From the NCBI GenBank assembly GCA_030599585.1, contig JAUVNS010000007.1, positions 209,694-273,693 on the forward strand: a DNA stretch of 64,000 nt. The letters are read 5' to 3'. The notes under the pieces were generated by a model, which saw only the letters and a list, made by a program, of their open reading frames with translations, searched no databases and was not told the DNA's origin. Made by a program: the position numbers and the translations under genes. Shown here in pieces: positions 24,959-64,000 of the stretch (the stretch's first letter is position 1; each line of letters starts with the position of its first letter). Origin of the DNA: Promethearchaeota archaeon. Lineage in GTDB: Archaea > Asgardarchaeota > Lokiarchaeia > Sigyniarchaeales > SOKP01.

Positions 24959-26197
24959 ATGAAAAAACGATTGTATTCACTTGATATTTTCCGCGGACTT
25001 GCTATTATGATGGTAGTGATCTTTCATAGATTCATGTACGATTGGCCAGGTTCAGATTTTTTCTTTACGAATCCAGCGGGATTTCTTGAAATTCCATGGT
25101 TCACTGCGATAATGTTTTTTGCAGGAATGGGTGGCATATTTTCAATAATTAGTGGTGTAGTTACAGGGTATTCAACTCATAATAGAATAACTTCTGGGAA
25201 GGGCAATAAAAAAATGATATTCTATGCAGGGCTTTTCTCTTTTTTATGGTTAATTGTGGTAGACTACATACGGAAATTTCTTTTCAGCACAAAGAGTTAT
25301 TTTGAAGGTGATTTTTTATTTGGACTAGTAACAGGGACACTTCTTGAAGGCACCCTAGTTGTTCCACAATTAGAATTACTATATTATACCAGCACATTGG
25401 CCATAATTGGTCTTTCTGGATTCATAGTTCCGGCATTAATGATTTTATTATCTCGAAAAGGTGGGATTGAAAAAGTTCGTCGCACTAAGTTTATTTTTGG
25501 AACTCTCGCCGCAGTTATTCTCGTTGCAACACCATTCTTATCAATTATACTCGATCCAATTGTGGTGGACTTATTTGTTAGTGGTAATTATTTATTAGGC
25601 TTCTTACTCGCACTACTTGTTTCACCTTATTTCCCTATTTTCCCAATCGTTGCTTATGCTTTACTCGGTGGAATAATAGGAATTTCTTTAGCTAGGGACG
25701 AGAAAAAGCGTAATATTACGATTATATGGTTAGTATTTGGATTTGCTCTGTTAAGTATTGGAAATTACATCCTGTTATCGGCTCTCATTCGCTTCAGTTT
25801 TTATAACTATAATTTCGTGAGATTTATGCAATTAGGAGTCTATATCATGATTATTATCGTTTTGCTTCGGTTGGTAGACCTTAGATCAGAAGAAAAGCAA
25901 GAGAAGATCGCAAAAAAATTCAGCCCCGTTATAATGTTCGGAAGAGTATCTCTAACGATCTTCGTTTTTGAAGCGTTCTTAGCTACTATATTTCATGTGA
26001 TTCTGAACCTGATTATTCCCGGATGGAACACTGAGCCTCTTGTTGTACTTATATTTGGCATCTTTAACTTAGCCGTATGGTGGATAATATTACACTTTTG
26101 GCAGAAGAAAGATTTTAAAGGTTCTATCGAATGGATGGGGGGTTATATTATTAGGAAACTCTCCAGTTTCGGTAGAAAGGAAGAAGAAGATAGGTAA
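24959..26197 (+). CDS. Membrane acyltransferase-like protein (HGSNAT/DUF1624 N-terminus, DUF418-like C-terminus)
   Basis: R-L-x-S-L-D-I-F-R-G-L-A-I-M-M-V-V-I-F-H, FPIFP, GRVSLTIF, KGSIEW. Confidence 0.75.
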   Translation: MKKRLYSLDIFRGLAIMMVVIFHRFMYDWPGSDFFFTNPAGFLEIPWFTAIMFFAGMGGIFSIISGVVTGYSTHNRITSGKGNKKMIFYAGLFSFLWLIVVDYIRKFLFSTKSYFEGDFLFGLVTGTLLEGTLVVPQLELLYYTSTLAIIGLSGFIVPALMILLSRKGGIEKVRRTKFIFGTLAAVILVATPFLSIILDPIVVDLFVSGNYLLGFLLALLVSPYFPIFPIVAYALLGGIIGISLARDEKKRNITIIWLVFGFALLSIGNYILLSALIRFSFYNYNFVRFMQLGVYIMIIIVLLRLVDLRSEEKQEKIAKKFSPVIMFGRVSLTIFVFEAFLATIFHVILNLIIPGWNTEPLVVLIFGIFNLAVWWIILHFWQKKDFKGSIEWMGGYIIRKLSSFGRKEEEDR

Positions 26198-43824: not shown

Positions 43825-44062
43825 AGGTTTATCCTCGAAAGTTAAGTAATCGTTTTTTTAAAATCTCTTAAAACTAGTCCTCTTTAATGTAAAAAATTCT
43901 TTTCTACTAAAATATAAATTTGGTTAGATAATATGATAATATACTATCTTTTTTTAAATATTAAGAAAACAATAAATGGCTTATCTTTTGTTTAAACAAA
44001 GCTTAACTAATTTCTATTTTATAACAAGAACATTTTATAATTCTATTCCTCATTTGAATAAT

Positions 44063-44215
44063 ATGAATGCTGTCGCTTGCAAAGAATGTGGTTATTCTTT
44101 TGAAGATAAGGAACCTGGAAAATATTATTGCCCTAATTGCTCCAAAGAAATGAAATTCATGAAGATTGAAGCTTTTTGTGGCGCGAAACCAGGAGAACTT
44201 TACGCGAAAGAATAA
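44063..44215 (+). CDS. 50-aa Zn-finger microprotein
   Basis: MNAVACKECGYSFEDKEPGKYYCPNCSKEMKF...; ATG at 44063 preferred to 43976. Confidence 0.65.
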   Translation: MNAVACKECGYSFEDKEPGKYYCPNCSKEMKFMKIEAFCGAKPGELYAKE

Positions 44216-44350
44216 TAAAATAAAAAAAAAAAATAGAGATTTTTAGGTTACTTTTTCCTTTTTTTACGCTCTACTAATACATTTATCTTAATCTTGTGAA
44301 TTGTAAGTTTTAAGATCAAAATTATAAGCATAACTACTTTTTTATACTCT

Positions 44351-45058
44351 ATGACTGAAGCTTTATACATGAACGACTCCTATTTAAAGAAATGGGATGC
44401 AAAAGTTATTTCTGTGAAAGACGATAAATTCATTGTCCTTAATAAAACCGCATTCTATCCTAAAGGAGGTGGCCAACCATGGGACGAGGGGTATATTATC
44501 AAAAATGGTGAGAAATTCAAGGTAGTATATGTAGGCAAATTTTCTGGAGAAATCAGCCACGAAGTAGAGAATCCTGGACTAAAAGAAGGAGACATAGTTT
44601 CGTGCGAAATCGATTGGGAGAGGCGATATACATATATGCGATACCATACTGCTTGTCATCTTCTTTCAAATCTGCTATATCGTAGAACGAACGCTAAAAT
44701 CACGGGCAACCAGATTGAATTGGACAAAGCAAGAATGGATTTCTCTATGGAGGATTATTCACCAGAAAAGTTACAGACCTATGTTGAAGAAGCTAATGAA
44801 ATTATTAATCAAGACCTTCCAATCACTATTGAGACGATGGCTAAAGCCGCAGTTTTAGGCGAACCCGAGCTTGCAAGATTAGCAGTTGGCTTACCCAAAA
44901 ATTTACAAGAATTCCGTATAGTTAAAATTGGAGACATCGATAAACAAGTTGACGGTGGAACCCATGTTAAAAATCTCAAAGAAATTGGCGAAATTCAGAT
45001 GACCAAAACTGTAAATAAGGGAAAGAAAAATAGGAGATTGTATTTCATACTCAAGTAA
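44351..45058 (+). CDS. alaXM: Alanyl-tRNA editing protein AlaX-M
   Basis: TAFYPKGGGQPWDEG, MRYHTACHLL (HxxxH), DGGTHV. Confidence 0.9.
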   Translation: MTEALYMNDSYLKKWDAKVISVKDDKFIVLNKTAFYPKGGGQPWDEGYIIKNGEKFKVVYVGKFSGEISHEVENPGLKEGDIVSCEIDWERRYTYMRYHTACHLLSNLLYRRTNAKITGNQIELDKARMDFSMEDYSPEKLQTYVEEANEIINQDLPITIETMAKAAVLGEPELARLAVGLPKNLQEFRIVKIGDIDKQVDGGTHVKNLKEIGEIQMTKTVNKGKKNRRLYFILK

Positions 45059-45110
45059 TTAACAAGCAAAACAGCTAATCTTTATTATTCTTTTTAAAAC
45101 TCAATTTTTT

Positions 45111-45126
45111 ACAAAAATGTTAAATA
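45111..45126 (+). promoter_or_regulatory. Putative BRE/TATA promoter, copy 1
   Basis: ACAAAAATGTTAAATA, identical to 52257-52272 and 38 nt (start to start) upstream of the conserved TGATCRT leader start in both copies. Confidence 0.6.
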
Positions 45127-45148
45127 CAAACTTATTTTACTTAGTCTT

Positions 45149-45249
45149 TGATCGTCTTCGATCAGTAATCCGATATTAAATAATGTTTTATGAATATTTA
45201 TTTGAAATTTATAAAGCTATTTGTTTGTAAATCTCTTGATCGATGATCA
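45149..45249 (+). promoter_or_regulatory. Putative structured 5' leader, copy 1
   Basis: TGATCGTCTTCGATCAG (45149-45165) can pair with TTGATCGATGATCA (45236-45249); same closing stem in copy 2. Confidence 0.45.
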
Positions 45250-45279
45250 TTTTTAAATCAAAAAAAAGGTAAAAAGAAA

Positions 45280-45807
45280 ATGAATAAAACAAAAAAAATG
45301 AGTATTTTATTTGCAACAATAGGTATCTTGGCGTTCAGTTTAATTCCCGCAGTTAGCGCAGGCGTTCCTGGTCACATGAAGGAGCGCCCGACGTACAATA
45401 ATCTTGCAGCGCCTTGGTTTCCCTGGATTCCAGATGATTTGCCGTTTAGCGCTTCAGAAGACCTCTATTTTAGAATGGGCTGGTACACAAGTCCTGAAGA
45501 AATAGAAGAGGATATTGCTCCTAAACATCCATGGAAAATTAAACTCTTTATTAACGATGAGGAAATCAATTTACAAAGATTTGGTTTTATAGGTGACAAA
45601 GTAAAAGTCTCATTCTGGTATCACGTCTTTGGACCGGGATATTTTGAAGCGGGCGGAGAATACCTTTTAAGATGGGAATTCTGGGTACGACGACCTTACA
45701 TGGGAGATGGCTTAAATCATTGGAGAATTATGGTAGATCATTGGGGATTATATCTTCCTATGGGTGCTGAATGGTGTTTTGAATATTATTTAAATATTGT
45801 TGCATAA
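45280..45807 (+). CDS. Secreted hypothetical protein (signal peptide)
   Basis: MNKTKK + hydrophobic stretch + PAVSA cleavage-like site; aromatic-rich beta mature domain. Confidence 0.75.
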   Translation: MNKTKKMSILFATIGILAFSLIPAVSAGVPGHMKERPTYNNLAAPWFPWIPDDLPFSASEDLYFRMGWYTSPEEIEEDIAPKHPWKIKLFINDEEINLQRFGFIGDKVKVSFWYHVFGPGYFEAGGEYLLRWEFWVRRPYMGDGLNHWRIMVDHWGLYLPMGAEWCFEYYLNIVA

Positions 45808-45852
45808 ATATTTGATACATTAAATTAAACAACAAAATTAATTAAATATAAA

Positions 45853-45934
45853 ATATAGAAAGCGGAGGAAAAAGTTTAGATAAAATGGCTTCTCGAAAGA
45901 CCACACCTAAACCAATTACCCTCCTACTCTATAT
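45853..45934. repeat. Conserved long imperfect hairpin (candidate structured RNA/ssDNA element), copy 1
   Basis: ATATAGA...GGAGG...GTTTAG...TGG(CTTCTCGAAAGA)CCA...CTAAAC...CCTCC...TCTATAT followed by oligo-T; 45885-45924 identical (40/40) to 53170-53209. Confidence 0.75.
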
Positions 45935-46162
45935 ATCTTTTTTTTCTTTTTATAATTTTGTATAAAATTCTATTATTCTCTTAGTAAAAACCTAAAGATA
46001 GCAATTAATCTTAAAACTCAAATCAAAATTATACTGAGAATCGTGGAATTCATGAATTAAATAGTAAATATAGCATTACTTTTTTGTACGTTAAAATATA
46101 ATTAAGACTAAAGATTACATTAATAATTTAATTATAAAGACAATAACGAGCTCTATACAATT

Positions 46163-46561
46163 ATGAAAGATATCTGTAAGGATTGTGGAAAATGCTGTAT
46201 TGAAACAGAGATGCTCTTATCTAGTTATGATATCGATCGTATTAAAAATGATAACCCCAAACATTTAAAAATAGCCAATTTTGCGCGAAAAACCGAAGAA
46301 GGATTTAACCAATTGATAAATGTTAAAGGTTATTGTGTATTCTTTGACAGTGATGTTAAATTGTGTACAATTTATGATGTAAGACCACAAGGGTGTCGTT
46401 TTTATCCATTGATTTATGATTCGGACAAAAAACATTGTATATTTGATGAGGAATGTCCGAAACCCAAATTATTATATCCAGATAAAGAGATCGCTGCAAA
46501 TACATGTAAGGAAATTAAAATCTTTTTAGAAAACCAAATCTTATTTGCTAAATTAGAATGA
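46163..46561 (+). CDS. YkgJ-family (CxxCxxCC) cysteine-cluster protein
   Basis: CKDCGKCC, CVFF...CTIYDVRPQGCRFYP. Confidence 0.85.
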   Translation: MKDICKDCGKCCIETEMLLSSYDIDRIKNDNPKHLKIANFARKTEEGFNQLINVKGYCVFFDSDVKLCTIYDVRPQGCRFYPLIYDSDKKHCIFDEECPKPKLLYPDKEIAANTCKEIKIFLENQILFAKLE

Positions 46562-46582
46562 TTGTCTTGATGGTATCGCGTT

Positions 46583-47371
46583 TTATTCAAGAGAATAGAA
46601 TTCAGTTCTTCTATCCTCAAAGACATTATTATACTTGTTAAGGTTTTTATCTCTCGCTTGTGTAACATCGATTTCAACAAAATCAATATGTGGTTTATCT
46701 ATTGGTGCGGACGAGAGTACTTTCCCATTATAAGAGGTAATTTGGCTACCCCCCGTAAATACAAAATTATCCTTTCCTCTAACTTCGTTTCCTATCCTAT
46801 TAGAAGTTACAGCGAAAACTCGATTTATCAAACAACGAGTTATCATAGCATTTTGGCAATAGGGAAGCACCAAGTTAGCGGGATGAGCTATAATGTCTGC
46901 TCCAAGAAGAGCAAGACTCCGAATAGTCTCAGGAAAAAACCAATCGAAACAAATCATGATTCCTACCTTTGTGTTTTTTACTTCATATATTTCTAAAGGT
47001 TTGTTTCCCGGAGAAAACCACAATTTTTCTTTGTAATAAAGGTGGAGTTTCCGATAAGTACCAAGAACCTCCCTATCAGATACGATCATGGAAGAATTAA
47101 AAATATGATTACCGTCTTTTTCTATGAATCCGCCTACAACCACAGCACCTGTTTTTTCAGCTAACCCCATTAAAAATTTGGCGGTTGCTCCTTCAGTGTT
47201 TTCAGCCATAGATTCTGCTTCTTCCTTAGATACAAATGTGTATCCTGTTGCGAAGAGTTCGGGTAAAACTATCAAATCTGCTTTCGTATTACCAAGCAAA
47301 TTTTCTACTTGTTCGAAGTTTTGAGTTATTTCACCAAAGATTGGAGAAGTTTGAATGTATCCAACTTTCAT
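46583..47371 (-). CDS. Nitrilase-superfamily C-N hydrolase / acyltransferase
   Basis: LPELFATGY (Glu), YRKLHL (Lys), ICFDWFFPE (Cys). Confidence 0.9.
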   Translation of the reverse strand: MKVGYIQTSPIFGEITQNFEQVENLLGNTKADLIVLPELFATGYTFVSKEEAESMAENTEGATAKFLMGLAEKTGAVVVGGFIEKDGNHIFNSSMIVSDREVLGTYRKLHLYYKEKLWFSPGNKPLEIYEVKNTKVGIMICFDWFFPETIRSLALLGADIIAHPANLVLPYCQNAMITRCLINRVFAVTSNRIGNEVRGKDNFVFTGGSQITSYNGKVLSSAPIDKPHIDFVEIDVTQARDKNLNKYNNVFEDRRTEFYSLE

Positions 47372-47373
47372 GT

Positions 47374-48270
47374 TTATTCTTTTTCTTCCGTTTCTTTTTC
47401 CTCTTTATCTTTTCTCCTAAGGGATCTCCGCTTCTTCATTACTCTAGCGACGCGTTGGTCGTCGTATTTCTTTAATAATTCGCCCATGTCTCCAATTGTT
47501 TTAGAAAGTTTTTCAATTGGGATATCTTCAAAAAACCTATTTCTCTTAAACTTTTTTGCCGGACCGCCGTTGTATATCCACCCTTCTTCTAATTCCTGTC
47601 CCACCATCGTAGAAGACCAAGTATTCAAAATACAGTTTTTTCCTATGTGTGTTCCAGGCATAATAATTACGTGCGCTCCAACTCTGACATTTTCTTCGAT
47701 AACTGTTTTTCTAATAATTAAAAAATTCCCTATTATAACCGAAGACTGAACAATAGCACCTTGTCCAATAACTACATTTTTACCGAACTCAATAAACTCT
47801 GTATCTACCCAACCTTCAAAAAGGGAATTAGAAAATTTAGTTTTTACGCCAAACATTTTAAAACATATATTATCTAAGAAGGGAAATGGAAATTTATGGG
47901 TGAGCCAAGTGGGCCATTTCTTTATAGTGTTCCTAAGACTCCAATAGCGGTAATCCTTATCTGAAGAATCTCTAAGAAACACCCCCTCTCTAGGTTTATG
48001 GAAAATGTTAATGATTCCTAACATAATTCTTGTGAAAAAGATGGCGGCAAAAACAGTTGTAATATAGATAACGAACAAATAAAGGGGCAAGAATACGTAA
48101 AAGTGGAGTGGCCGTGGCTCGTACCATAACATCTGCCAGTACCACCAAATTTCAAAAATAGCGGGAAGTAGGCTTATCCAAATCAAAAAAATGTAGGCTA
48201 TCAAGTACTTCTTTTTAGCTAAGACCGTCGCACAAAAAGGACCTACGCGCATAGAATTAGGAACGCTCAT
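47374..48270 (-). CDS. 2-TM left-handed beta-helix acyltransferase-like protein (array member 5)
   Basis: 2 TMs, PREGVF...YRYW, hexapeptide repeats, WIYNGGPAK; ATG at 48270 after GGTGAT. Confidence 0.8.
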   Translation of the reverse strand: MSVPNSMRVGPFCATVLAKKKYLIAYIFLIWISLLPAIFEIWWYWQMLWYEPRPLHFYVFLPLYLFVIYITTVFAAIFFTRIMLGIINIFHKPREGVFLRDSSDKDYRYWSLRNTIKKWPTWLTHKFPFPFLDNICFKMFGVKTKFSNSLFEGWVDTEFIEFGKNVVIGQGAIVQSSVIIGNFLIIRKTVIEENVRVGAHVIIMPGTHIGKNCILNTWSSTMVGQELEEGWIYNGGPAKKFKRNRFFEDIPIEKLSKTIGDMGELLKKYDDQRVARVMKKRRSLRRKDKEEKETEEKE

Positions 48271-48271
48271 T

Positions 48272-49186
48272 TTAATCACCCTCACTCTTTTTTTTAACTA
48301 AATGCTTCTTATCTTCGTCAATATTAACTTCGTGCTCGGTTTCGACTTTTTCTTCTTCGTCAACATCTACTTTATGAATAATATCCCTACGCATTTCGGC
48401 GTATTTGTTAGGCTTTAATTTCCTTGCGGGGATTCCGGTATAGATCCATCCAGCTTCTAATTTTTGATTTAGGGTTGTTACGGATACCGCACCGAGCACC
48501 GTATCTTCACCAAAATGCGTTCCGGGGGCGATAGTACACTGACCTCCTACGAGCGAATAATCATCAAATCTGATCGTTTTAATGATGAGGTAATTACCTA
48601 CTACCATCGAGCTCATAATAGCCGCTCCCTGACCGATGGTTACATTTTTACCAAAAGAAATGAATTCAGCGTCGCACCAGGCATCGTTTAAATGGCTTGA
48701 AAAATCCATCCTTATTCCAAACCAACGGAAAGCTATTACATCAATCCACGGTAGAGGCCAATTTCTTATCAGCCATAGAGTAATCTTCTTTATCTCGGTT
48801 CTAAATCGCCAAAATTCAAAGTCAGGGTTCCCTGAATCAGTGCGGAATATTCCTTCTTTAGGGAGGTGAATAAGGTTAACAAATATAAGAAATAATTTAC
48901 TGAAAAACAAGCAACTAAATATGAAAAGAAACGAAAAGAATAACAATAAAAGGGGTAAAAATAATAATTTGATAATCCAAGGTACTGGACTAACAACGTA
49001 ACCATACCATAGTGTTGCCACAACTAAACCACTAAACCAGAATATTGGGATATACACAACTAAAAATTTCAAAGTTACTTTATTTATTGCTGAACTTGTG
49101 GTAAAGTCTATAACAAATTCTGAGTCATCATCTGTCTCATCATCTTTCTTAACAATATCTTGCTTGTCTTTTTCTTCTTCTGTCAT
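48272..49186 (-). CDS. 2-TM left-handed beta-helix acyltransferase-like protein (array member 4)
   Basis: 2 TMs, PKEGIF...FEFW, hexapeptide repeats, WIYTGIPAR. Confidence 0.8.
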   Translation of the reverse strand: MTEEEKDKQDIVKKDDETDDDSEFVIDFTTSSAINKVTLKFLVVYIPIFWFSGLVVATLWYGYVVSPVPWIIKLLFLPLLLLFFSFLFIFSCLFFSKLFLIFVNLIHLPKEGIFRTDSGNPDFEFWRFRTEIKKITLWLIRNWPLPWIDVIAFRWFGIRMDFSSHLNDAWCDAEFISFGKNVTIGQGAAIMSSMVVGNYLIIKTIRFDDYSLVGGQCTIAPGTHFGEDTVLGAVSVTTLNQKLEAGWIYTGIPARKLKPNKYAEMRRDIIHKVDVDEEEKVETEHEVNIDEDKKHLVKKKSEGD

Positions 49187-49204
49187 TTTATCTCACAAAT
49201 AATT

Positions 49205-50125
49205 TTAATTTGGTTTTTCTTTATTGTTTATTTCATCTTTATTTGAACTTTTGAGTTTAGCGTTTACTTGTCTAACTCTTAATTCCTCAGCTCGTTTTAA
49301 ATCTTCTTCACTAACTTTTAGGTATTCCATTAATTTCTTCTTGAAGATTCGTCTAAAAGGCATCCCATAGTAGAAATTATCTCCTTTGGTTGTATTAAAT
49401 TTTGTTGCTGCGGCCATGGGTAATAGGTAAGTGTTATCCTTTAACACGCACCCAGGAGCAACAACATTAAAACCTCCGAGTGTGACATTATCTTCTGCTG
49501 TTACTTTAAAACAGATGATGTTACCAAAAATACCCTCAACAGTATGAGAAGCTAAAGCCGAATTAATACCAATATAACAATTTTTCCCAACATCAATGTG
49601 TCGATCGTTGCTTACAGATTCTTCGAAAGTTGTGCCTCTGTTAATAACGCAAGCACCTACAAAATTAAAAAACCAGTTTGCCAGCCACGGGAAAATTCCT
49701 TTCACGAAAGCATTCTTTCCATATTTAATCATAAAACTTCTGTAGTGGTAATAATCTGCTGCTTTAGAATCTATATTGCGAGGAATTATTCCATCTTTAG
49801 AAGGGCTTCTTTTCTCTGTAAATCTCCATGCAATTCTTGTAAACACTCCTAAGAGAAATAGGTGTGACAAATGGAAGACAATGAGTATAAATGGAATTGT
49901 TAAAAAAATAATTAAAGAATCAAGTCTTGTAAGGACAATAATAAAACTATCTACTTCTAAAAATAAGGGTTTTATAATTAGGAAAAGGTAAAACATTAGA
50001 GCTATGACTGGCACTAAATAAGAACCAACATAAATAAAAAAGAAGAAGGCAATGTATTTCTGATATTGGAATTGAACAATTTCCCGTTGAAGTTCAGGTC
50101 TAGAATCACTAGTATCTTCAATCAA
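49205..50125 (-). CDS. 2-TM left-handed beta-helix acyltransferase-like protein (array member 3)
   Basis: SPSKDGIIPR, VGKNCYIG, SHTVEG, YYGMPFRR. Confidence 0.8.
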   Translation of the reverse strand: MIEDTSDSRPELQREIVQFQYQKYIAFFFFIYVGSYLVPVIALMFYLFLIIKPLFLEVDSFIIVLTRLDSLIIFLTIPFILIVFHLSHLFLLGVFTRIAWRFTEKRSPSKDGIIPRNIDSKAADYYHYRSFMIKYGKNAFVKGIFPWLANWFFNFVGACVINRGTTFEESVSNDRHIDVGKNCYIGINSALASHTVEGIFGNIICFKVTAEDNVTLGGFNVVAPGCVLKDNTYLLPMAAATKFNTTKGDNFYYGMPFRRIFKKKLMEYLKVSEEDLKRAEELRVRQVNAKLKSSNKDEINNKEKPN

Positions 50126-50162
50126 AATCTACTACATTCCTCACTTTTTTATAATTTCTTTT

Positions 50163-51059
50163 TTATTTTTCTTTATTTTCTTCTTCTAATTTTTTTTTTT
50201 CTTGTCTAACTCTTAATTCTTCAGCTCGAGATAAATCCTCTTCGCTTATTTTTAAGTAATTCATTATTTTCTTCTTAAATATTCGACGTAATGGCATCCC
50301 GAAGTAGTAATTATCTCCCTTAGTTGTATTAAATTTTGTGGCTGCAGCCATAGGTAATAAGTAAGAATTTTCTTTTAAATCGCCCCCAGGTCCAATTTGA
50401 TTGAATCCGCCAAGGGTGACATTTTCCCCTAATACAATTTTAAAGTAAATAATATTTCCGAAGATCCCTTCTACTACATGAGTACATAGCGTGGAATTTA
50501 CGCCAATATAGCAATTTTTACCAACGATTATGTTTCTATCGTTAAGTACCGATTCTTCAAATGTGGTGCCTTTATCAATAACGCCAGCACCCACAAAATT
50601 GAGAAACCAATTAACCAACCAAGGGAAAAATCCTTTCATGAAAGCGTTCTTTCCGTATTTAATCATGAAGCTTCTGTAGTGGTAAAAATCTGCTGTTTTT
50701 GAAGGTATGTCACGAGGAATTATACCATCCTTCGAAGGGCTCTTTTTTTCAGTATACCTCCAAAAAATTCGTGTAAACACTCCTAAGAAAAATAGGTGAG
50801 ATAAATAGAATATAATAACCACAAGTGGAATGGTTAAAAAAACAATTAAAGAATCAAGACTCGTAAGAATAACAATAAAACTTCCTACTTCTAAGAACAA
50901 GGGTTTTAAGATTAGGAAGAGGTAAAACATGAGAACTATGACTGGCACTAAATAAGAACCAACATAGATAGCAAAGAAGAATGCCATGTATTTATGATAC
51001 TGGAAGTGAACTAATTCCCGTGGAATATCCGATCCAGAATCACTTATATCTTCAAGCAA
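50163..51059 (-). CDS. 2-TM left-handed beta-helix acyltransferase-like protein (array member 2)
   Basis: SPSKDGIIPR, VGKNCYIG, THVVEG, YFGMPLRR. Confidence 0.8.
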   Translation of the reverse strand: MLEDISDSGSDIPRELVHFQYHKYMAFFFAIYVGSYLVPVIVLMFYLFLILKPLFLEVGSFIVILTSLDSLIVFLTIPLVVIIFYLSHLFFLGVFTRIFWRYTEKKSPSKDGIIPRDIPSKTADFYHYRSFMIKYGKNAFMKGFFPWLVNWFLNFVGAGVIDKGTTFEESVLNDRNIIVGKNCYIGVNSTLCTHVVEGIFGNIIYFKIVLGENVTLGGFNQIGPGGDLKENSYLLPMAAATKFNTTKGDNYYFGMPLRRIFKKKIMNYLKISEEDLSRAEELRVRQEKKKLEEENKEK

Positions 51060-51085
51060 AATCTAATACATTCCTCTCTATTTTA

Positions 51086-52006
51086 TTATGAATTCTCATC
51101 ATTTGTTACTTTTTTCTGTCTTTTTAATTTTTCATTCTCTTGTTTAACTCTTAATTTCTCAGCTCGTTCTAAATCTTCTTCGCTTACTTTTAAGTAATCC
51201 ATTATTTTCTTCTTAAATATTCGTCGGAATGGCATCCCAAAGTAATAATTATCCCCTTTAGTTTTATTATGCTTTGTCGCAGCCGCTATTGGTAAGAGAT
51301 ACGAGTTATCGCTTAACTCACATCCAGGCGCAATATTGTTAAATCCACCTAGTGTAACATTTTCGCCTAATTTGATTTCAAAAAAGACGATATTGCCAAA
51401 TATTCCTTCTACAAAGTGAGAAGATAATGCAGAATTAACACCGATATAGCAATTCCTTCCAACATTTATGTTTTTATCGGTAACAACTGATTCTTCTAAT
51501 GTGGAGCCTTTATTAATAACCCCAGTTCCTACAAAATTAAAGAACCAATTTGCTAACCAAGGAAAAACTCCTTTCATAAATGAGTTTTTTCCGTATTTTA
51601 GCATAAAAGATCTTATATGGTAATAATTAGCGGTTTTGGAACCGATATTTCGTGGAATTACGCCATCTTTCGTAGGACTTCTATATTCAGTGAACCTCCA
51701 GAAAATTCGAGATATTAAACCTACAATAAATAAGCGAGATAAGTAACTAACAACAATTACTAACGGCAAAGCTAAAAATGCCATTAACGAATCAATATTT
51801 GTAAATATAACAAGGAGGTTATCTACTAACAAGACATATGGAACAAATACAATAATTATGTAAGTCATAAAAATGATACCCGAGACTACATAAGACAAAT
51901 AATAAATTACAAAGAATATACTTAAGTACCAATGAAACTGGAGTTTAATTTTTTCTCTTGGAACTTCCGTATCGTCTTCATCATTACCTTCAATTTCATC
52001 TAGCAC
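51086..52006 (-). CDS. 2-TM left-handed beta-helix acyltransferase-like protein (array member 1)
   Basis: SPTKDGVIPR, VGRNCYIG, SHFVEG, YFGMPFRR; GGTGA RBS. Confidence 0.8.
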   Translation of the reverse strand: MLDEIEGNDEDDTEVPREKIKLQFHWYLSIFFVIYYLSYVVSGIIFMTYIIIVFVPYVLLVDNLLVIFTNIDSLMAFLALPLVIVVSYLSRLFIVGLISRIFWRFTEYRSPTKDGVIPRNIGSKTANYYHIRSFMLKYGKNSFMKGVFPWLANWFFNFVGTGVINKGSTLEESVVTDKNINVGRNCYIGVNSALSSHFVEGIFGNIVFFEIKLGENVTLGGFNNIAPGCELSDNSYLLPIAAATKHNKTKGDNYYFGMPFRRIFKKKIMDYLKVSEEDLERAEKLRVKQENEKLKRQKKVTNDENS

Positions 52007-52256
52007 TTCTATTCACCTTTCTTTTTTTTAATTTTTTTCTTGATTTCAATTAGGCTTCATAGTTAAGCTTACCAGATCAAATTTGAATTAGTTAATATAT
52101 ATTATAAGTAATACTCTACTTAATTTCTGTGGTTTTCTTTTAAAAATGCTAATTTGAAAATCATAAATCTGATCTATTTTCCTTTAAGAATAGAGAAGGG
52201 TGTATCTTGTGCTAAAATAATAGAGAAGAACAGCTTTTCCCCAAATTTAATATCTG

Positions 52257-52272
52257 ACAAAAATGTTAAATA
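52257..52272 (+). promoter_or_regulatory. Putative BRE/TATA promoter, copy 2
   Basis: ACAAAAATGTTAAATA, identical to 45111-45126. Confidence 0.6.
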
Positions 52273-52294
52273 GGATGTTATCTCATTTGTAATT

Positions 52295-52393
52295 TGATCA
52301 TTTCCGATCAAAGATATAGGATGGGCGTTCCTAATTGAAAAACGACTTCACCTATCTTAACTAAAACCTATCTTTGGTGTTAAAAAATGATCA
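52295..52393 (+). promoter_or_regulatory. Putative structured 5' leader, copy 2
   Basis: TGATCAT...ATGATCA closing stem; AAGATATAGG can pair (with a bulge) to either of two downstream CCTATCTT copies. Confidence 0.45.
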
Positions 52394-52444
52394 TTTTCGA
52401 AAACGGAAAAATTGAATTTGAAAAAAAATAGAGGAATAGAAAAA

Positions 52445-53080
52445 ATGAAAAAAACAAAAATAATTCTCGTAGCGGCTTTGGGAATTTGCATGTTAAGCTT
52501 TATGCCAACAGTACTAGGAAAAGCAGACGTTAGACCAATTTCGGACTTCACTGATACTAACGGTTATGTAGCAGCATGGATGGATCCTGAAACCAACTTA
52601 ATCATTTTCCCTCATGGATTTTTTGTAACTCCTCCAGGCTTCAACACTATTTCGGACTGCGAATACCATGGCTCTGTACTCGAGAGAGAATTGAAAGATG
52701 GACGAATTATGTATAAAATTAATTTGCACGTAAAAGGTGCCTATATGTTGGTCGGTGATTTTGGTATTAATCCATATGTATTTGAAGGCGAAATGGATTA
52801 TAATTTCCAAGTAACCATAATTGTTGAGGGAGAATTGGGTGGTCCTGTCCCAAATCTTATGGATATATGGTTTTTTGGTGCAGCAGGTGAAACACCATAT
52901 CTGCATATAACGGGGAGTGGTACCGGGACATTTCTAGTTGATGCATTTGGTTTCACTGCTGGGGATACTGCGAAAGTAAAAGTGAATCAAGTTGGTATTG
53001 TAATACCAGATGACCACCCCCAATATGATCCATTTTATGCACCATTTATGTATCCTGTAGAATTCGTCTTTTTCCACTAA
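52445..53080 (+). CDS. Secreted hypothetical protein (signal peptide)
   Basis: MKKTK + hydrophobic stretch + PTVLG-KA; ATG at 52445 after GAGG preferred to TTG at 52412. Confidence 0.75.
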   Translation: MKKTKIILVAALGICMLSFMPTVLGKADVRPISDFTDTNGYVAAWMDPETNLIIFPHGFFVTPPGFNTISDCEYHGSVLERELKDGRIMYKINLHVKGAYMLVGDFGINPYVFEGEMDYNFQVTIIVEGELGGPVPNLMDIWFFGAAGETPYLHITGSGTGTFLVDAFGFTAGDTAKVKVNQVGIVIPDDHPQYDPFYAPFMYPVEFVFFH

Positions 53081-53137
53081 AAAAGTCAAAAGCAAGTACT
53101 ATAACAAATTGAAGTAAAAAAATTATCTTAATTAAAC

Positions 53138-53220
53138 ATATAGAAAAGGAGAGGAACTTGTTTAGATACATGGCTTCTCGAAAGACCACACCTAAACCAA
53201 TTACCCTCCATTCTCTATAT
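53138..53220. repeat. Conserved long imperfect hairpin, copy 2
   Basis: Same architecture as 45853-45934, identical 40-nt core 53170-53209, followed by T9. Confidence 0.75.
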
Positions 53221-53346
53221 CTTTTTTTTTATTTTTAAAATTAATCTAAAAAAACTCACTATTTTACTATTTAATTAGTTTCAAAGACATTAAGAGGGTT
53301 GGAGAACGCTAAAAAAATTCGGAGTATTCATTTTTCAATGGACTAA

Positions 53347-53766
53347 CTAGCAATTTTGTGGATTTTTGCTTTTTAGAATTTCAATGTCTTTTTTGATATC
53401 TTTAGCATTCGGAGATTCACCTAATCCTAGTCCCGTTAAAATCTCTAATCCCTCTTCCAAATTTTTTAACGCCTTGAGATATTTTCCATTCGCGTAATGA
53501 ATTATCCCGATGTTATTAAGACGAATAGCTTTCCCGCTCAAATCTCCTAGTTGCTCGTCGATTTGTAGTGCCTGCTCGTACTGCTCCAATGCTTCTGGAT
53601 AGTTTTTTTTTGCTCGATAAACCTCTCCGATGTTGTTAAGGACAGTAGCTTTCCCGCTCAAATCTCCTAATTACTCGGCTACTTTTAGTTCCTCTTCGTA
53701 TCGCTTTAATGTTTCTGGATAGTTACTCTCTTTAAAATAAATCATCCCAATATTAATAAGAAAATT
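53347..53766 (-). pseudogene. TPR-repeat gene fragment with internal stop
   Basis: NFLINIGMIYFKESNYPETLKRYEEELKVAE*LGDLSGKATVLNNIG...; TAA at 53671-53673 where the next repeat has CAA (EQLGDLSGKA); 5' end missing. Confidence 0.7.
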
Positions 53767-54165
53767 ATAAGATTAGTAGGGTTCATAATTTAATTTCTTT
53801 TAGTAACAATTGAATCACATGTGTAAACAAATCATAAATCGAGCATGCAATTTTTGTTTAAAAGCAATCTACTACTTATTAACATAACAGTATCGACATA
53901 ATTACGACTCAATCAGCAAAAAATCTTATGCAAATAAATCGATAAAAACTAGTACGCGAATTACTACTAGATTCATGGATTTAGCAAATTAACCCACGAC
54001 TCGAATTTAGTAGTTTAATCAATCGCTTAATATCTTCCAAACAATAATTTTAAATTAGTGAAAAACTTAAATTAAGAATTAGGTTAAGGCATTAAAAATT
54101 TAAATTTAGTTAAAGACCTCGATAAAATTAACTAATTAACATAATCACAAATAAAGAGTAAGATA

Positions 54166-56421
54166 ATGACCGATAATTCGTTTTCGTTAGGAGATTTATA
54201 TCCTAAGTATGTAATTAACTCTAAAGGTGAAAAAAAAGAGTTTGAAGTTTCTAGCATAGCTAAAGTCTTAAATAAGGAAACTGGACTTGACATAAATATC
54301 GCAGAGAAAGTTACGGAGGAAGTCGTGCGTAAAATAATTGGGCTTGGGATTGATGAAATAACTACTAATTATATAAGGGAATTAGTCTGCGTAGAACTAA
54401 CTCAACGAGGGCTGAATAAATACCGAAATTTGTTTGCCCGTGCTATTAATTTAGAAAGCATCTCTTTTACGTTAGATGAAGCTTTCATTAATGAATTCAA
54501 AGGGAAACAACCAAAGTGGGGACCATTAGGACAAATTACTTACAAAAGAACGTATGCCCGATTTATTGAAAAGGAAGGGAGGAAAGAGGATTTTTGGGAA
54601 ACTATTAGGAGGGTCGTTGAAGGTTGTTATTCGATACAAAAAGAACATTGTATGAAGTTAAGCTTGCCTTGGAGCGATTCAAAGGCTCAAAGATCGGCTC
54701 AAATTATGTACCAGAAAATCTGGGATTTTAAGTTCTTACCTCCTGGAAGAGGACTTTGGATGATGGGCACTGAATTTATTGCTCGACATGGATCGATGTC
54801 GTTGAACAACTGCGGATTTGCCTCCACCGAAGACATCGATTTAAAATACTCAAAAGCATTTGAATTTGTAATGGATGCTCTAATGCTTGGTGTGGGTGTT
54901 GGATTCGATACTAAGGGTGCAGGAAAAATATCAATTAAGAAGCCTCAAGAAGGTGATATTGCTTTTGAGATCCCTGATAGTAGAGAAGGTTGGGTTGAAG
55001 CGCTTCGAATAGTTTTAGAAGCGTATTTCTTAGGGAAACAGCGCCCTATTTTTGATTATACTTTAATAAGATCTGCAGGTGAACCCATTAGAGGTTTTGG
55101 TGGAATTGCCAGCGGTCCTGCTCCATTAAAGGATATGTTAGAAAGCATTCAAGAAATTCTGGAAGTTAGAATAAATAAAGAAATAACATCCCTTGATATT
55201 TTAGACATCATGAATTTAATCGGAAAGTGCGTCGTAGCAGGAAACGTTAGGCGTAGCGCCGAAATTGCTCTTGGAGAAGCTACAGATTTGGATTTCATAA
55301 CATCTAAACAAGACGAAGAAAAACTGTATTCGCATAGATGGGCAAGCAATAATAGCGTATTTGCTGTTAAAGGATTAGATTACTCATTTATCGCAGATCA
55401 AATTGCTGTAAATGGTGAGCCAGGAATTTTTTGGCTTGAAAACGCTAAAATCTATTCTCGGATGGGAGATAAACCAGATTATAAGGATAAAAAAGCTGCT
55501 GGCGTAAATCCTTGTGGAGAACAGACTTTAGAATCGTTTGAACTTTGTTGTCTTGTAGAAACTTTTCCATCGCACCACGATACTTACGAGGAGTTTCAAG
55601 AAACTTTAAAGTTCGCTTATCTCTACTCTAAGTCCGTAACTCTCGTTAACACTCATTGGCAAGAAACCAATGCAGTAATGCTTAAGAATCGGCGAATGGG
55701 GGTTTCACAAACAGGAATAATTGAAGCATTTGTCAAGAACGGCAGGAGAACTGTGTTGGAATGGTGTAAAAAAGGATATAACTATTTACAAAAGTTAGAC
55801 GAACAATATTCTGGCTGGCTTTGTATACCGAAGAGTATTAAGTTAACCACCGTTAAACCTAGTGGTACTGTGAGTCTTCTTCCAGGTGTTCCTCCAGGAA
55901 TTCATTACCCTCATTCGGAGTATTACATTAGGCGGATACGTATTTCAAAGAATTCAGACTTGATAGAACCCATAAAAAAGGCAGGTTATTTCGTTGAAGA
56001 TGATTCTTATTCTCCCAATACAATTGTAGTTGAATTTCCTGTGCACGAACAATATTTCGAACGCTCAAAAAATGATGTTTCTATATGGGAACAAGCCGAA
56101 AATGCAGCAGATTATCAGAAATATTGGTCTGACAATCAAGTGTCTATTACAATTACATTTCAGCCACATGAAGCAAGTCAGATCAAACATGTCCTTGAAT
56201 GCTTTGAAGACAAATTAAAAAGCGTTTCATTTTTGCCAATTAAAGAACATGGTTACAAGCAAGCGCCTTACGAAGAAATAACTAAAGAAAAATATGAAGA
56301 AATGAGCTCAAACCTCAAACCTGTGTTCTTAGATGATACACAAGATAGAGCAATCGGAGAAAAATTCTGTGACAGCGATAAATGCGAAGTAAATTTCGAT
56401 GATAAGGTAATCAGCGGATAA
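54166..56421 (+). CDS. nrdJ: Class II (AdoCbl-dependent) ribonucleotide reductase, monomeric-type, with N-terminal ATP cone
   Basis: FLPPGRGLW, LNNC, GNVRRSAEI, NGEPG, NPCGEQ, KPSGTVS, C-terminal CDSDKC; N-terminal VINSKG-x-x-x-EF...TNYIRELV cone. Confidence 0.92.
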   Translation: MTDNSFSLGDLYPKYVINSKGEKKEFEVSSIAKVLNKETGLDINIAEKVTEEVVRKIIGLGIDEITTNYIRELVCVELTQRGLNKYRNLFARAINLESISFTLDEAFINEFKGKQPKWGPLGQITYKRTYARFIEKEGRKEDFWETIRRVVEGCYSIQKEHCMKLSLPWSDSKAQRSAQIMYQKIWDFKFLPPGRGLWMMGTEFIARHGSMSLNNCGFASTEDIDLKYSKAFEFVMDALMLGVGVGFDTKGAGKISIKKPQEGDIAFEIPDSREGWVEALRIVLEAYFLGKQRPIFDYTLIRSAGEPIRGFGGIASGPAPLKDMLESIQEILEVRINKEITSLDILDIMNLIGKCVVAGNVRRSAEIALGEATDLDFITSKQDEEKLYSHRWASNNSVFAVKGLDYSFIADQIAVNGEPGIFWLENAKIYSRMGDKPDYKDKKAAGVNPCGEQTLESFELCCLVETFPSHHDTYEEFQETLKFAYLYSKSVTLVNTHWQETNAVMLKNRRMGVSQTGIIEAFVKNGRRTVLEWCKKGYNYLQKLDEQYSGWLCIPKSIKLTTVKPSGTVSLLPGVPPGIHYPHSEYYIRRIRISKNSDLIEPIKKAGYFVEDDSYSPNTIVVEFPVHEQYFERSKNDVSIWEQAENAADYQKYWSDNQVSITITFQPHEASQIKHVLECFEDKLKSVSFLPIKEHGYKQAPYEEITKEKYEEMSSNLKPVFLDDTQDRAIGEKFCDSDKCEVNFDDKVISG

Positions 56422-62790: not shown

Positions 62791-63300
62791 AATAAATCCT
62801 CTTTTTAATTTTGGAATAGTTATAATTATTCAAGTGCGAAATTTAATAAAAATATTGTTGAATCAAAGTATTTCTACATTGTTATATTATGTTTGTACTT
62901 GACATAAGATGTGCCTTTGTTTAACATGGATATTTGATACGAAATTCAAAACCTATCGTTATGAAATTCTATTTGTATCACCCACTTTTGGCAAAATATC
63001 ATTTCCAGTTAAATTCAACTCCTTAAATGTTTCTGAATGCTCGGTATGGAGGGGGTTAATTTCTTTAGGATTCTTTTTCAAAGGCTAATAAGTTCGATTT
63101 GTCAAATTTGTCTAAATCGTCATTGTCAATCTTTTAATTACATTCAACACATTCCAAACTCTCACATTAATCTCTTTCATTTGCAAAAATATCAGCAGAA
63201 ATATCTCCGTTTTCAATCAGTGACCAAATTCTTTATAAATAATACTATCTTAAAATTGTAACTATATCTTTAAGAAAATTAAAGATTGTGGTGTAAATCA

Positions 63301-64000
63301 ATGAAAAAATCAAAAAAAACGCACATCTTGTTAAAGGTTCTCCTTATTTCAATGTTTTTCGTAATTCCATATATGGTAATAAGTATACAGAGAGAGAGCG
63401 AAATTCTGATTGAGGAGAAGAATCCTAACGAGATTTTAAATACTCGGCCACCCCAAGCATCTTCTCCTTACTACGGAAACACGGCCGGAGATGCGCGTGA
63501 CGTTTACGTGAGTGGAGATAACGCCTACGTGGCGGATGGTTGGACGGGTTTGGCGGTCATCGACGTTTCCGACCCGACAAACCCGGGAACGCCCATCTAC
63601 GAAGACACGACCGGATTAGCAGATAGCGTTTACGTGAGCGGAGATTACGCCTATGTGGCGGATTATGGTTCGGGCTTGGCGGTCATCGATGTTTCCGACC
63701 CGACAAACCCGGGAACGCCCGTCTACGAAGATACGACTGGAGAAGCACGTGGCGTTTACGTGAGCGGAGATTACGCCTATGTGGCGGATGCTGGTTCGGG
63801 CTTGGCGGTCATCGACGTTTCCGACCCGACAAACCCGGGAACGCCCGTCTACGAAGACACGACCGGAGAAGCAGTTGACGTTTACGTGAGCGGAGATTAC
63901 GCCTATGTGGCGGATAATGCACAGGGCTTGGCGGTCATCGAAGTTTCCGACCCGACAAACCCGGGAACGACCCTCTACGAAGACGCGACCGGAGGTGAAC
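63301..64000 (+). CDS. Secreted/surface LVIVD-repeat (beta-propeller) protein, 3'-truncated by window edge
   Basis: MKKSKK + signal/TM, then repeats of VYVSGDYAYVADxxxGLAVIDVSDPTNPGTPVYEDTTGxAxx; absent from the ORF track because it has no stop in the window. Confidence 0.88.
   Translation, partial: MKKSKKTHILLKVLLISMFFVIPYMVISIQRESEILIEEKNPNEILNTRPPQASSPYYGNTAGDARDVYVSGDNAYVADGWTGLAVIDVSDPTNPGTPIYEDTTGLADSVYVSGDYAYVADYGSGLAVIDVSDPTNPGTPVYEDTTGEARGVYVSGDYAYVADAGSGLAVIDVSDPTNPGTPVYEDTTGEAVDVYVSGDYAYVADNAQGLAVIEVSDPTNPGTTLYEDATGGE
63481..64000 (+). repeat. 126-bp tandem coding repeats (at least 4 units)
   Basis: CGTTTACGTGAG recurs at 63501, 63627, 63753 and 63879; one sampled line is 60% GC. 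Confidence 0.92.

Follow-up and report, generated by a model that had tools for sequence, protein, structure and literature searches.

Two exported-protein genes in similar flanks

The window (the whole 64,000-nt stretch analysed) derives from a Promethearchaeota genome of 4.85 Mb (32.6% G+C, 100% complete by marker genes). It hosts two genes for exported proteins, P0001 and P0002, starting at 45280 and 52445 (Table 1). The sequence-only reading of this DNA had assigned them four common parts, namely a promoter box, a leader, a signal peptide and a 3' hairpin, and all four are present where it placed them. These parts are differing kinds of element. The cargo genes have a BRE/TATA box each, no array arrangement is seen in the window, and seven unrelated ORFs separate the two copies of the 3' element, hereafter type A, which are 7.3 kb apart.

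Table 1. Features of the two loci (window positions).
Feature	Position	Strand	Description
BRE/TATA-type promoter box	45111..45126	+	ACAAAAATGTTAAATA; resident promoter, locus downstream of AlaX-like gene; orthologous to L097 and L084 promoters
TGATC-N6-GATCA palindrome	45149..45164	+	TGATCGTCTTCGATCA; 22 nt past TATA end; probable operator at transcription start
Cargo-promoter remnant	45208..45249	+	TATA-like 45208-45216; degenerate GATC palindrome 45237-45249, includes the "closing ATGATCA"
P0001 gene	45280..45807	+	175-aa exported protein; signal peptide and Ig-like beta-sandwich (model pLDDT 90)
P0001 3' UTR	45808..45849	+	~45 nt; arrived with P0001 cargo; aligned with ortholog 3' UTRs (A7)
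Type A 3' element, copy 1	45850..45945	+	Hairpin 45853-45934, T8 at 45938-45945; covariance model R1, 108 bits
BRE/TATA-type promoter box, gene 52445	52257..52272	+	ACAAAAATGTTAAATA, identical to 45111-45126
TGATC-N6-GATCA palindrome	52295..52310	+	TGATCATTTCCGATCA; at probable transcription start; conserved in orthologs L065, L116, L129
Second TGATCATTTTC box	52389..52399	+	~21 nt past TATA-like stretch, ~45 nt before ATG
P0002 gene	52445..53080	+	211-aa exported protein; large family with RP(I/L)xD(W/F) motif
Type A 3' element, copy 2	53135..53230	+	Hairpin 53138-53220 and T9; R1, 105.7 bits

P0001 has no Pfam match, and its fold weakly matches the CD22 Ig domain (Z 7.1) and many other Ig/FN3 domains. 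P0002 has 111 homologs, paralogs on C34 and C20, and a model (pLDDT 87) with weak fold matches only (Z up to 5.8). Foldseek searches of the PDB found nothing at E up to 0.001 for either protein. The resemblance of the signal peptides and the dissimilarity of the mature domains, both remarked upon earlier, were borne out. BLASTP aligns residues 1-25 and 1-23 of the two proteins at 48% identity and finds nothing significant further on, and profile comparison confines the similarity to the N-terminal ~70 columns (HHalign 95.7%). The signal peptide is part of a lineage-typical N-terminal module. The mature domains are predicted to differ in fold, an Ig-like sandwich in P0001 versus an open beta-barrel-like structure in P0002, as the confident models match different fold classes, albeit weakly in both cases.

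Promoters and leaders

The 16-nt box is indeed identical at 45111 and 52257. The genome holds 7 exact copies of it and 14 with at most one mismatch (chance expectation, estimated from base composition and genome size, ~0.06 per genome), and some exact copies precede unrelated cytoplasmic genes. The box is a generic strong promoter of the BRE/TATA type, and not the cassette-specific part it had been taken for. Both palindromes start exactly 38 nt past the start of the box, as had been reported for the leader; the ATGATCA said to close it is found 94 nt on at 45243-45249, again as reported, and 93 rather than 92 nt on at 52388-52394. TGATC-N4-8-GATCA sites number 21 genome-wide, and only the two in the window lie 22 nt past this box. 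The same palindrome and spacing recur in L070, L084, L097, L073 and L129, and also in P0001 orthologs (L158-L160, L165, L174). The GATC palindromes are probably operators at the transcription start.

The leader of gene 45280 had been described as one unit, but consists of the resident promoter with its operator and then of what is left of the cargo's promoter and operator: in alignment A8, 45208-45249 is matched to the entire native promoter-operator-SD region of P0001 orthologs (G059, G019, G131). In gene 52445 the second TGATCATTTTC box may mark a second promoter, and a direct repeat of this box type is found also in L065, L116, L123 and L070. What was called a leader is a pair of stacked promoter modules, each with a TGATC-N6-GATCA-type palindrome ~22 nt on. 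Leader class and 3' element assort independently among genes, which does not support the single frame previously envisaged.

Structure of the type A element

The ~82-nt hairpin with a 40-nt identical core and oligo-T was found as described: the cores at 45885-45924 and 53170-53209 match at 40/40 positions, and T8-T9 runs follow. Predicted folding energies are -18.6 (copy 1) and -19.8 kcal/mol (copy 2), with z of -2.5 and -2.9 against shuffles. At the corresponding locus, G074, G042 and G056 carry the ortholog of copy 1. Every full copy is followed by a T8-T10 run, the outer arms are an inverted repeat of 14-15 nt, and loops are conserved as much as stems. Stem positions are paired in 86-87% of cells, versus 36-52% when the partner is slid. 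A check for covariation, suggested by the sequence-only reading, gave a divided answer. In the MAFFT alignment, unbiased as to structure, there is none (0.077 vs 0.077, a score reached by 201 of 500 shuffles), and RNAalifold obtained no consensus structure from it; in the model-fitted alignment with antisense rows removed, which leans to the structure, covariation is modest (31 compensated cells vs 11.8 shuffled). Since G-U cells (56) are not above A-C cells (81), wobble pairs carry no strand signal.

Rfam gave no match at E up to 1 for 44000-54500 on both strands. Readings of the apical loop as H/ACA, C/D-box, K-turn or T-loop were discarded, as no ACA or C/D boxes are seen by eye and Rfam is silent. 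A small ORF from the core ATG is broken in many copies by an ACG or TTG start or an in-frame TAA or TGA; a second possible ORF across the 5' arm lacks a start codon in copy 1 and is frame-shifted in copy 2.

Distribution and conservation

The search for copies elsewhere was fruitful. R1 has matches in 59 of the 151 genomes searched in the order, every one of them in a single Asgard family, f1 (g1, 22/41; g11, 35/53; g5, 1/8); these amount to ~170 copies, to which 26 metagenome contigs add; BLAST detects the element in 31 of 101 genomes of the family. Genomes host 1-8 copies, presence at a given locus varies, and in some relatives copies are 1-5 kb apart. Copies lie 35-70 nt past the stop codon, in the orientation of the gene, save ~10 orphans and some copies at contig ends. 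The 61 complete ORFs ending at most 120 nt upstream of a copy look like signal-peptide or TM proteins by a hydropathy heuristic in 53 instances, against 13.7% of background ORFs; most of the other 8 seem to have mis-called starts, judging their sequences by eye. They fall into 9 BLAST clusters, one of which holds 43 ORFs, and because most upstream genes are thus paralogs, the link with export stems partly from shared descent. The element is nevertheless found behind at least 7 BLAST-unrelated groups of exported proteins, in many genomes.

Type A copies are 79.1% identical within and 77.5% between genomes, and only 6 of 69 copies have their nearest neighbour in their own genome (label permutations: mean 2.6, maximum 8). 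Equal divergence within and between genomes speaks for purifying selection and not for recent spread. It also dismisses concerted evolution as a general cause of conservation, the common 40-nt core of the window pair notwithstanding. Between paralogs with 28% protein identity, the element keeps 88-91%; hairpins are 79-90% identical and leaders 69-93%, no less than coding DNA (69-82%), while downstream DNA is mostly 56-68%. The ~95-nt type A hairpin with its T-run is conserved, by purifying selection, within one archaeal family. No description of such an element was found in the literature, and the paper on circularised Asgard genomes by Wu et al. (2022) makes no mention of hairpins, palindromes or intergenic repeats.

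A selfish nature, as a repeat of the MITE, REP or ERIC kind that has terminal inverted repeats and inserts near gene ends, is very improbable for type A. Its arms, its 1-8 copies per genome and its variable presence would suit such a repeat, but identities reveal no burst, and orientation and distance to the upstream gene are fixed. In this genome no longer element has the same ends, and no other locus carries both arms. The Y1 profile of IS200/IS605-type transposases (PF01797) has no match in the genome, though it matched 6 of 14 control genomes, and no target-site duplication is visible by eye at the junctions (alignments A7, A8). A MITE was rejected in particular, given no autonomous element with both arms, no excess of within-genome similarity and no duplication by eye.

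The hairpin and T-run directly downstream of a same-strand gene have the arrangement of a hairpin-plus-U-tract terminator. Type A might be a mere terminator region, in which a T-run and an incidental hairpin were inherited with duplicating genes. The constant T-run and the paralogy of most cargo genes agree with this, as does the convergent setting of half of the copies, in which one palindromic terminator could act for the genes on either side; with 32 convergent and 34 tandem arrangements, a bias towards convergent neighbours was rejected. Termination in Archaea is known to need a U-tract but no hairpin. Sequences before post-gene T-runs are not unusually structured across this genome (median z -0.06). 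Type A copies keep ~78% identity next to unalignable coding regions, with loops conserved as stems, and occur behind BLAST-unrelated gene groups and as conserved orphans. We regard this explanation as quite unlikely.

Replacement of cargo

Window segments 44707-45175 and 45835-45960 match L097, L064 and L066, in which the cargo in between is either lacking or a 297-305-aa protein of the other family. Upstream, contig L198 agrees with the window at mostly 94-100% identity (two 50-nt blocks are 76% and 82%), and from the hairpin onward at 84-96%, but at only 34-88% in the mature domain, where third-position identity is 74%. The alignments show two loci at which mature-domain cargo has evidently been replaced between a conserved 5' part and the hairpin, and in both the 3' junction falls directly before the hairpin. 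The AlaX and IMPase/Mpg loci carry different cargo in different genomes. The 3' UTRs of P0001 orthologs run on into a different hairpin (type B); as the closest P0001 orthologs carry that hairpin, type A is not obligatory for the P0001 cargo.

Comparing synteny in relatives, as had been advised, thus revealed cargo swaps at two loci, but no clean excision at the empty sites: in L088 an untidy deletion took half of the type A element, and in L066 a short remnant persists between AlaX and the element. The co-occurring recombinase or reverse transcriptase that was to be looked for did not turn up. None of the type A copies has a recombinase, reverse transcriptase or Y1 transposase linked to it (RVT_1 and PF01797 were examined), and the two RVT_1 genes, on C15 and C21, are away from all copies. 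A diversity-generating retroelement target was likewise rejected, lacking a template repeat: apart from the full-length C20 paralog (71%), neither coding region has a further match.

Type A could work as DNA, being a boundary or hotspot of recombination for cargo exchange, like the pilin-cassette 3' repeat or attC, and be kept because turnover is advantageous. The position of the junctions and the loci with changing cargo fit this reading. So does the 40-nt core of the window copies, with derived states absent elsewhere in the alignment (AAG, three variable loop positions), which suggests local gene conversion between the two. Yet any conserved flank acts as a homology arm, hence the junctions do not show recombination to be the selected function. 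No Y1 transposase or reverse transcriptase is linked, the empty sites do not resemble clean excision, and the window genes have own promoters and lie outside arrays. Type A copies are not more alike within genomes, as archaeal attC sites are (PMC9668308). All considered, a selected role as DNA appears rather improbable.

A role at the RNA level

The modular unit first proposed holds insofar as a conserved non-coding frame accompanies differing cargo; its cassette-specific promoter and a linked recombinase or reverse transcriptase do not. We see an even chance that the two genes are members of a lineage-specific, fast-evolving set of exported-protein genes of one Asgard (Promethearchaeota) family, built from exchangeable modules, and that the following mechanism applies. 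The T-run would end transcription, leaving the hairpin as part of the mRNA 3' end, where it would act in cis as a sequence-specific binding site for a putative factor setting stability, translation or placement of exported-protein mRNAs. The GATC palindromes would be operators of a dimeric regulator, and winged-helix and MalT-type TPR gene pairs, which are found beside many of these modules, are the candidate regulators. Being conserved among otherwise unrelated genes, the non-coding modules may serve as homology arms, so that cargo would be exchanged by ordinary recombination with no dedicated cassette machinery.

Alternatively, type A may be a small RNA gene of its own, transcribed from an AT-rich TATA-like stretch directly upstream and ended by the T-run; its place behind exported-protein genes would then point to sibling sRNAs, 3'-UTR-derived or in tandem, which work in trans or titrate a shared factor. 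About 10 copies have no upstream gene on their strand; orphans are conserved in both genera between an IMPase-like and an Mpg-like gene, retain the T-run, and include the best model match (L062, 126 bits). In many copies the hairpin is immediately preceded by a TTTAAATA-like stretch. A start ~22 nt past the TATA-like stretch, however, would lie within the 5' arm, although conservation and pairing (87-95%) extend over both arms. Moreover, copies other than orphans (and some at contig ends) keep their distance and orientation to a gene, and no complementary target was found in the genome besides the copies themselves. The sRNA explanation is unlikely.

Going beyond the cis-acting mechanism preferred here, the hairpin might be a 3'-UTR address or regulon mark, its conserved loops read by a dedicated RNA-binding factor which couples the mRNAs of exported proteins to membrane or secretion machinery, or co-regulates them, while the frame also permits cassette-like turnover of surface-protein cargo. 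This is a speculative extension, to which we assign a low probability; if true, prokaryotes would have in this mark an equivalent of the 3'-UTR zipcodes of eukaryotes.

Hardly any non-coding regulatory elements have been charted in Asgard archaea, and type A is long, strongly conserved, family-specific and linked to exported proteins of several unrelated groups. It offers a concrete starting point for testing post-transcriptional control, or the diversification of surface proteins, in the archaea most closely related to eukaryotes. Replacement of mature domains between conserved flanks bears on surface variation in uncultured organisms. Usable products are a covariance model for annotation and, at the transcription start, TGATC-N6-GATCA as a candidate operator with candidate regulators close by.

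Comparison with known systems

ERIC/IRU and REP/BIME elements are bacterial imperfect palindromes, from tens to ~130 nt long, found in transcribed intergenic DNA, frequently at the 3' end of a gene. They are conserved in sequence from species to species, vary in their presence at a given locus, and may affect mRNA stability. Type A is similarly an imperfect palindrome at gene 3' ends with variable presence. It differs in being archaeal, present in 1-8 copies per genome, fixed in orientation and distance, always followed by a T-run, and associated with exported-protein genes. Unlike REP/RAYT systems, its host genome has no Y1 (RAYT) transposase (PF01797).

Bacterial intrinsic terminators and 3'-UTR stabiliser hairpins, as well as archaeal U-tract/aCPSF1 termination, have in common with type A a hairpin followed by a U-tract at the end of the transcription unit. 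The type A hairpin, in contrast, is long and AT-rich, with internal loops conserved in sequence across two genera, and hairpins of this type are not general in the genome.

Integron gene cassettes with attC sites are reportedly enriched in Asgard genomes; they are recognized as tandem arrays of mostly promoterless short genes with attC sites <4 kb apart, and archaeal attC sites are more alike within genomes (PMC9668308). Type A shares with them an imperfect hairpin 3' of short, diverse genes. Yet the window copies are too far apart and form no tandem promoterless array, and within- and between-genome identities are close. Taking the order of attC core sites as reference, the inner GTT...AAC arms of type A stand in reverse order. 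Type A thus departs from integron cassettes in array, promoterless genes and within-genome similarity.

Neisseria pilin cassettes have a constant 5' region and a conserved 3' repeat (Sma/Cla), and their variable parts are exchanged by homologous recombination. Type A genes are distinct, as each has its own promoter, silent donor arrays are absent, and the cargo includes different folds and not variants of one protein. They resemble pilin cassettes in the constant 5' part with the signal region, the variable exported domain and the conserved non-coding 3' repeat.

A 3' element shared by genes for exported proteins

A new conserved 3' element on genes for exported proteins, combined with modular non-coding parts and with turnover of the cargo (the mature coding part) inside the frame, is well supported. 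The element, called here type A, is a hairpin followed by a T-run. BLAST with 45850-45950 detected copies in 31 of 101 family genomes (73-91% identity, 1-7 copies per genome). The wider search suggested by the sequence-only reading was run with a covariance model, R1, built from 70 copies (alignment A3), and located the element in 59 of the 151 genomes of the order, all within family f1 (22/41, 35/53 and 1/8 genomes in genera g1, g11 and g5, respectively), and in none belonging to three other families. An exact 23-base pattern matched 26 metagenome contigs, in which the gene context repeats the same picture. Rfam, also proposed for searching, gave no match to the element, and the literature examined holds no description of it.

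The window is C26:209694-273693 of the source genome (4.85 Mb, 32.6% G+C). Besides the two window copies, this genome carries one on contig C34 and two altered ones, a variant on C20 and, on C39, a degenerate copy. In the C20 variant the outer arms are retained along with the T-run and the GGAGG/CCTCC stem, whereas a short loop of ~16 nt replaces the inner 48 nt. Many copies have a conserved 5' extension beginning near the stop codon, GGAGA followed after ~10 nt by TGAGGGTTGAAATCTCTAAAT, seen ~25-60 nt upstream of the hairpin in L074, L096, L099, L110 and L119, and reduced to a mere trace in the two window copies.

Coordinates of the genes and elements discussed
Feature	Location	Strand	Remarks
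P0001 gene	45280-45807		175 aa
P0002 gene	52445-53080		211 aa
Type A element, window copies	45850-45945; 53135-53230		
Short-loop variant of type A	G000:C20:345638-345708 (L145:1501-1571)		3' of another P0002 paralog
Type B 3' hairpin and T-run	L158:2060-2145; L159:820-905; L160:1375-1465	minus	close P0001 orthologs
Winged-helix and MalT-type TPR genes	G000:C34:210993-213072; L149:5100-7539; L150:1987-4117; L153:1450-4669		near element-bearing exported-protein genes

A complete same-strand ORF ends within 120 nt of 61 of the 86 distinct copies, at a distance of mostly 35-70 nt. A simple hydropathy test classes 53 of these 61 ORFs as signal-peptide or TM-like, whereas among background ORFs the share is 13.7%, and most of the 8 exceptions, read by eye, look like mis-called starts. 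BLAST clustering of the proteins, after removal of the N-terminal 35 residues, yielded 9 clusters: the P0002 family (43 members), the P0001 family (7), secreted proteins of ~450 aa (5), one further family (3), a 388-aa secreted protein resembling beta-lactamase by eye plus a fragment, three singletons with a signal peptide or TM segment, and one non-exported, HEAT-repeat-like protein preceding a degenerate copy.

About 10 copies lack an upstream gene on their own strand, and for such orphans an independent sRNA role is a less favoured possibility. One orphan locus, conserved in both genera and including the best-scoring copy overall, sits in antisense orientation with an IMPase-like gene on one side and an Mpg-like gene on the other; in other genomes it hosts different exported-protein genes with the element, along with a winged-helix and a MalT-type TPR gene. 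The same gene pair adjoins the C34 copy. The winged-helix gene has weak ArsR/MarR/TrmB matches, and both genes are candidate regulators.

Structure of the hairpin

Folded singly, the sequences form a hairpin that is long but imperfect (z from about -2.3 to -2.9). Covariation in the stems, a check proposed along with the sequence-only reading, depends on the alignment. With MAFFT, 86% of cells pair, against 36-52% with slid partners, covariation is the same as after shuffling, and RNAalifold returns no consensus structure; a model-fitted alignment freed of antisense rows, which leans towards structure, has 31 compensated cells against 11.8 in shuffles (0/1000 reach 31). G-U cells (56) are not above A-C cells (81), so that pairing carries no strand signal; the plus strand is indicated by the fixed place behind an ORF of the same strand and by a T8-T10 run on one side only. 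Conservation of the loops GGCTTCTCGA and ACCACACCTAAAC matches that of the stems, which suggests sequence-specific recognition. Type B hairpins, conserved 3' of close P0001 orthologs, have AT-rich arms and an apical GGCTTCAAGAA that is similar to GGCTTCTCGAA in the type A loop; types A and B may have diverged from a common origin.

The two exported proteins, their promoters and leaders

Box, leader, signal peptide and 3' hairpin are all present at both window genes, as first described, and the mature domains, for which no similarity had been noticed, look unrelated also in predicted structures, within the limits of weak Z-scores, because the two lists of fold matches share no entry. The AlphaFold models are confident (pLDDT 90 for P0001, 87 for P0002): P0001 matches sandwiches of the Ig/FN3 type (Z up to 7.1; 80-95 residues at rmsd 2.4-3.1 Å), and the only matches of P0002, to open barrels and beta-taco folds, are weak (Z up to 5.8). 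Alignment of the two proteins is limited to the first ~25 residues by BLASTP and to the N-terminal ~70 profile columns by HHalign (95.7% probability), and neither has a Pfam match. Between the two genes, on the minus strand (47374-52006), reside five paralogous genes in tandem, each of ~303 aa and matching hexapeptide repeats (LbH); DNA identity among their repeat blocks is 73-77%. At ~63301 (ATGAAAAAATCAAAAAAAA; region 63300-63974) there may be another ORF start, similar to the two signal-peptide starts, and three 126-nt tandem repeats (63471-63974) follow at the window edge.

The 16-nt box, first counted among the parts of the frame, is a general strong BRE/TATA-type promoter, since it has 7 exact copies genome-wide, some ahead of proteins without signal peptide. 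A TGATC-N6-GATCA palindrome begins 22 nt past the TATA end, plausibly where transcription should start according to established archaeal promoter geometry. Box and palindrome are combined in this genome only at the two window genes; a near variant precedes a secreted-protein gene on C49. There (25509-25560, minus strand) the exact box has TGATCAGTTTTGATC after it, 37 nt from the box start, and the site may be a member of the same operator set. The arrangement recurs in other genomes before orthologs and paralogs, and before P0001 orthologs.

The ~100-nt leader closed by ATGATCA exists as described, but at gene 45280 it is composite (alignment A8). Nucleotides 45095-45175 are orthologous to promoter and operator in the related genomes G074 and G014, where the locus likewise follows an AlaX-like gene; ~45208-45279 aligns with everything that P0001 orthologs natively have there, from promoter through palindrome to SD region, which makes the closing ATGATCA a degenerate form of the operator that belongs to the promoter of the cargo itself. 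At gene 52445, too, a second TGATCATTTTC box lies ~21 nt past a TATA-like stretch. Leader and 3' element assort independently, as other element-bearing genes show at least 4 further conserved leader types. Leader classes conserved across genomes were noticed upstream in L067, L071, L072, L079, L115 and L096, one of them with GATCACAATATTTAAATATAAATCTTTCCCAT ahead of a GGGAC segment complementary to it; any of these classes may by itself act as operator or regulatory RNA.

Age of the element and replacement of cargo

Copies are 79.1% identical within a genome and 77.5% between genomes, and only 6 of 69 have their nearest neighbour in the same genome, inside the permutation range. Since copies within a genome are no more alike than those between genomes, they are old and kept by purifying selection, neither homogenised nor recently spread. 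The element is 88-91% identical between paralogs with 28% protein identity. In comparisons of genomes where the adjacent AlaX coding DNA shows 72-74% identity, it reaches 82-85%. Among gene 52445 orthologs the figures are 79-90% for the hairpin, 69-82% for coding DNA and 56-68% for downstream DNA (92% in contig L198).

The proposal that cargo is swapped within a conserved non-coding frame held at two places. At the AlaX locus, 44707-45175 (AlaX end, promoter, first palindrome) matches G074, and 45835-45960 (element and downstream flank) matches G074, G042 and G056; the cargo there is a 297-305-aa member of the other family (L097, L064). The closest P0001 orthologs (L158-L160) have their own promoter and the type B hairpin, and in the window gene ~45 nt of this native 3' UTR are retained, after which the sequence becomes type A. 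As to empty sites in relatives, a comparison proposed with the sequence-only reading, G056 (L066) has no cargo gene at this locus but a short remnant, and in L088 (G065) a deletion has brought a leader up against the element's second half.

The second place is L198, mostly 94-100% identical to 51912-52461 (two 50-nt blocks at 76% and 82%) and 84-96% identical from 53129 onward, but only 34-88% in mature domain and spacer. In the mature domain third positions are 74% identical, and codons differ at 21 of 113 conserved residues. Synonymous change far above what the flanks allow indicates that recombination replaced one allele by another, or that the alleles are balanced and very old. At the AlaX locus as in L198, the 3' junction falls just ahead of the hairpin.

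Mobility, termination and proposed function

That position would fit a DNA-level recombination role of the element, a less probable reading. The mobilisation cassette imagined at first, with a co-occurring recombinase or reverse transcriptase, found no support in what was searched: in the genome neither a Y1 transposase, nor a longer element sharing the type A ends, nor a template-repeat-like copy of either coding region was found, and reverse transcriptase genes are located away from element copies. An integron cassette was also considered, and those integron features that were examined are missing.

We infer, and favour, a cis-acting RNA 3'-end module, in which the T-run would act as transcription terminator and the hairpin as binding site for a factor; recombination at the flanks would be a consequence of their conservation. 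A plain terminator is a less probable alternative; the 80 nt preceding T-runs downstream of ORFs are unstructured genome-wide (median z -0.06, 6% below -2), and the type A hairpin is therefore not the ordinary terminator design of this organism.
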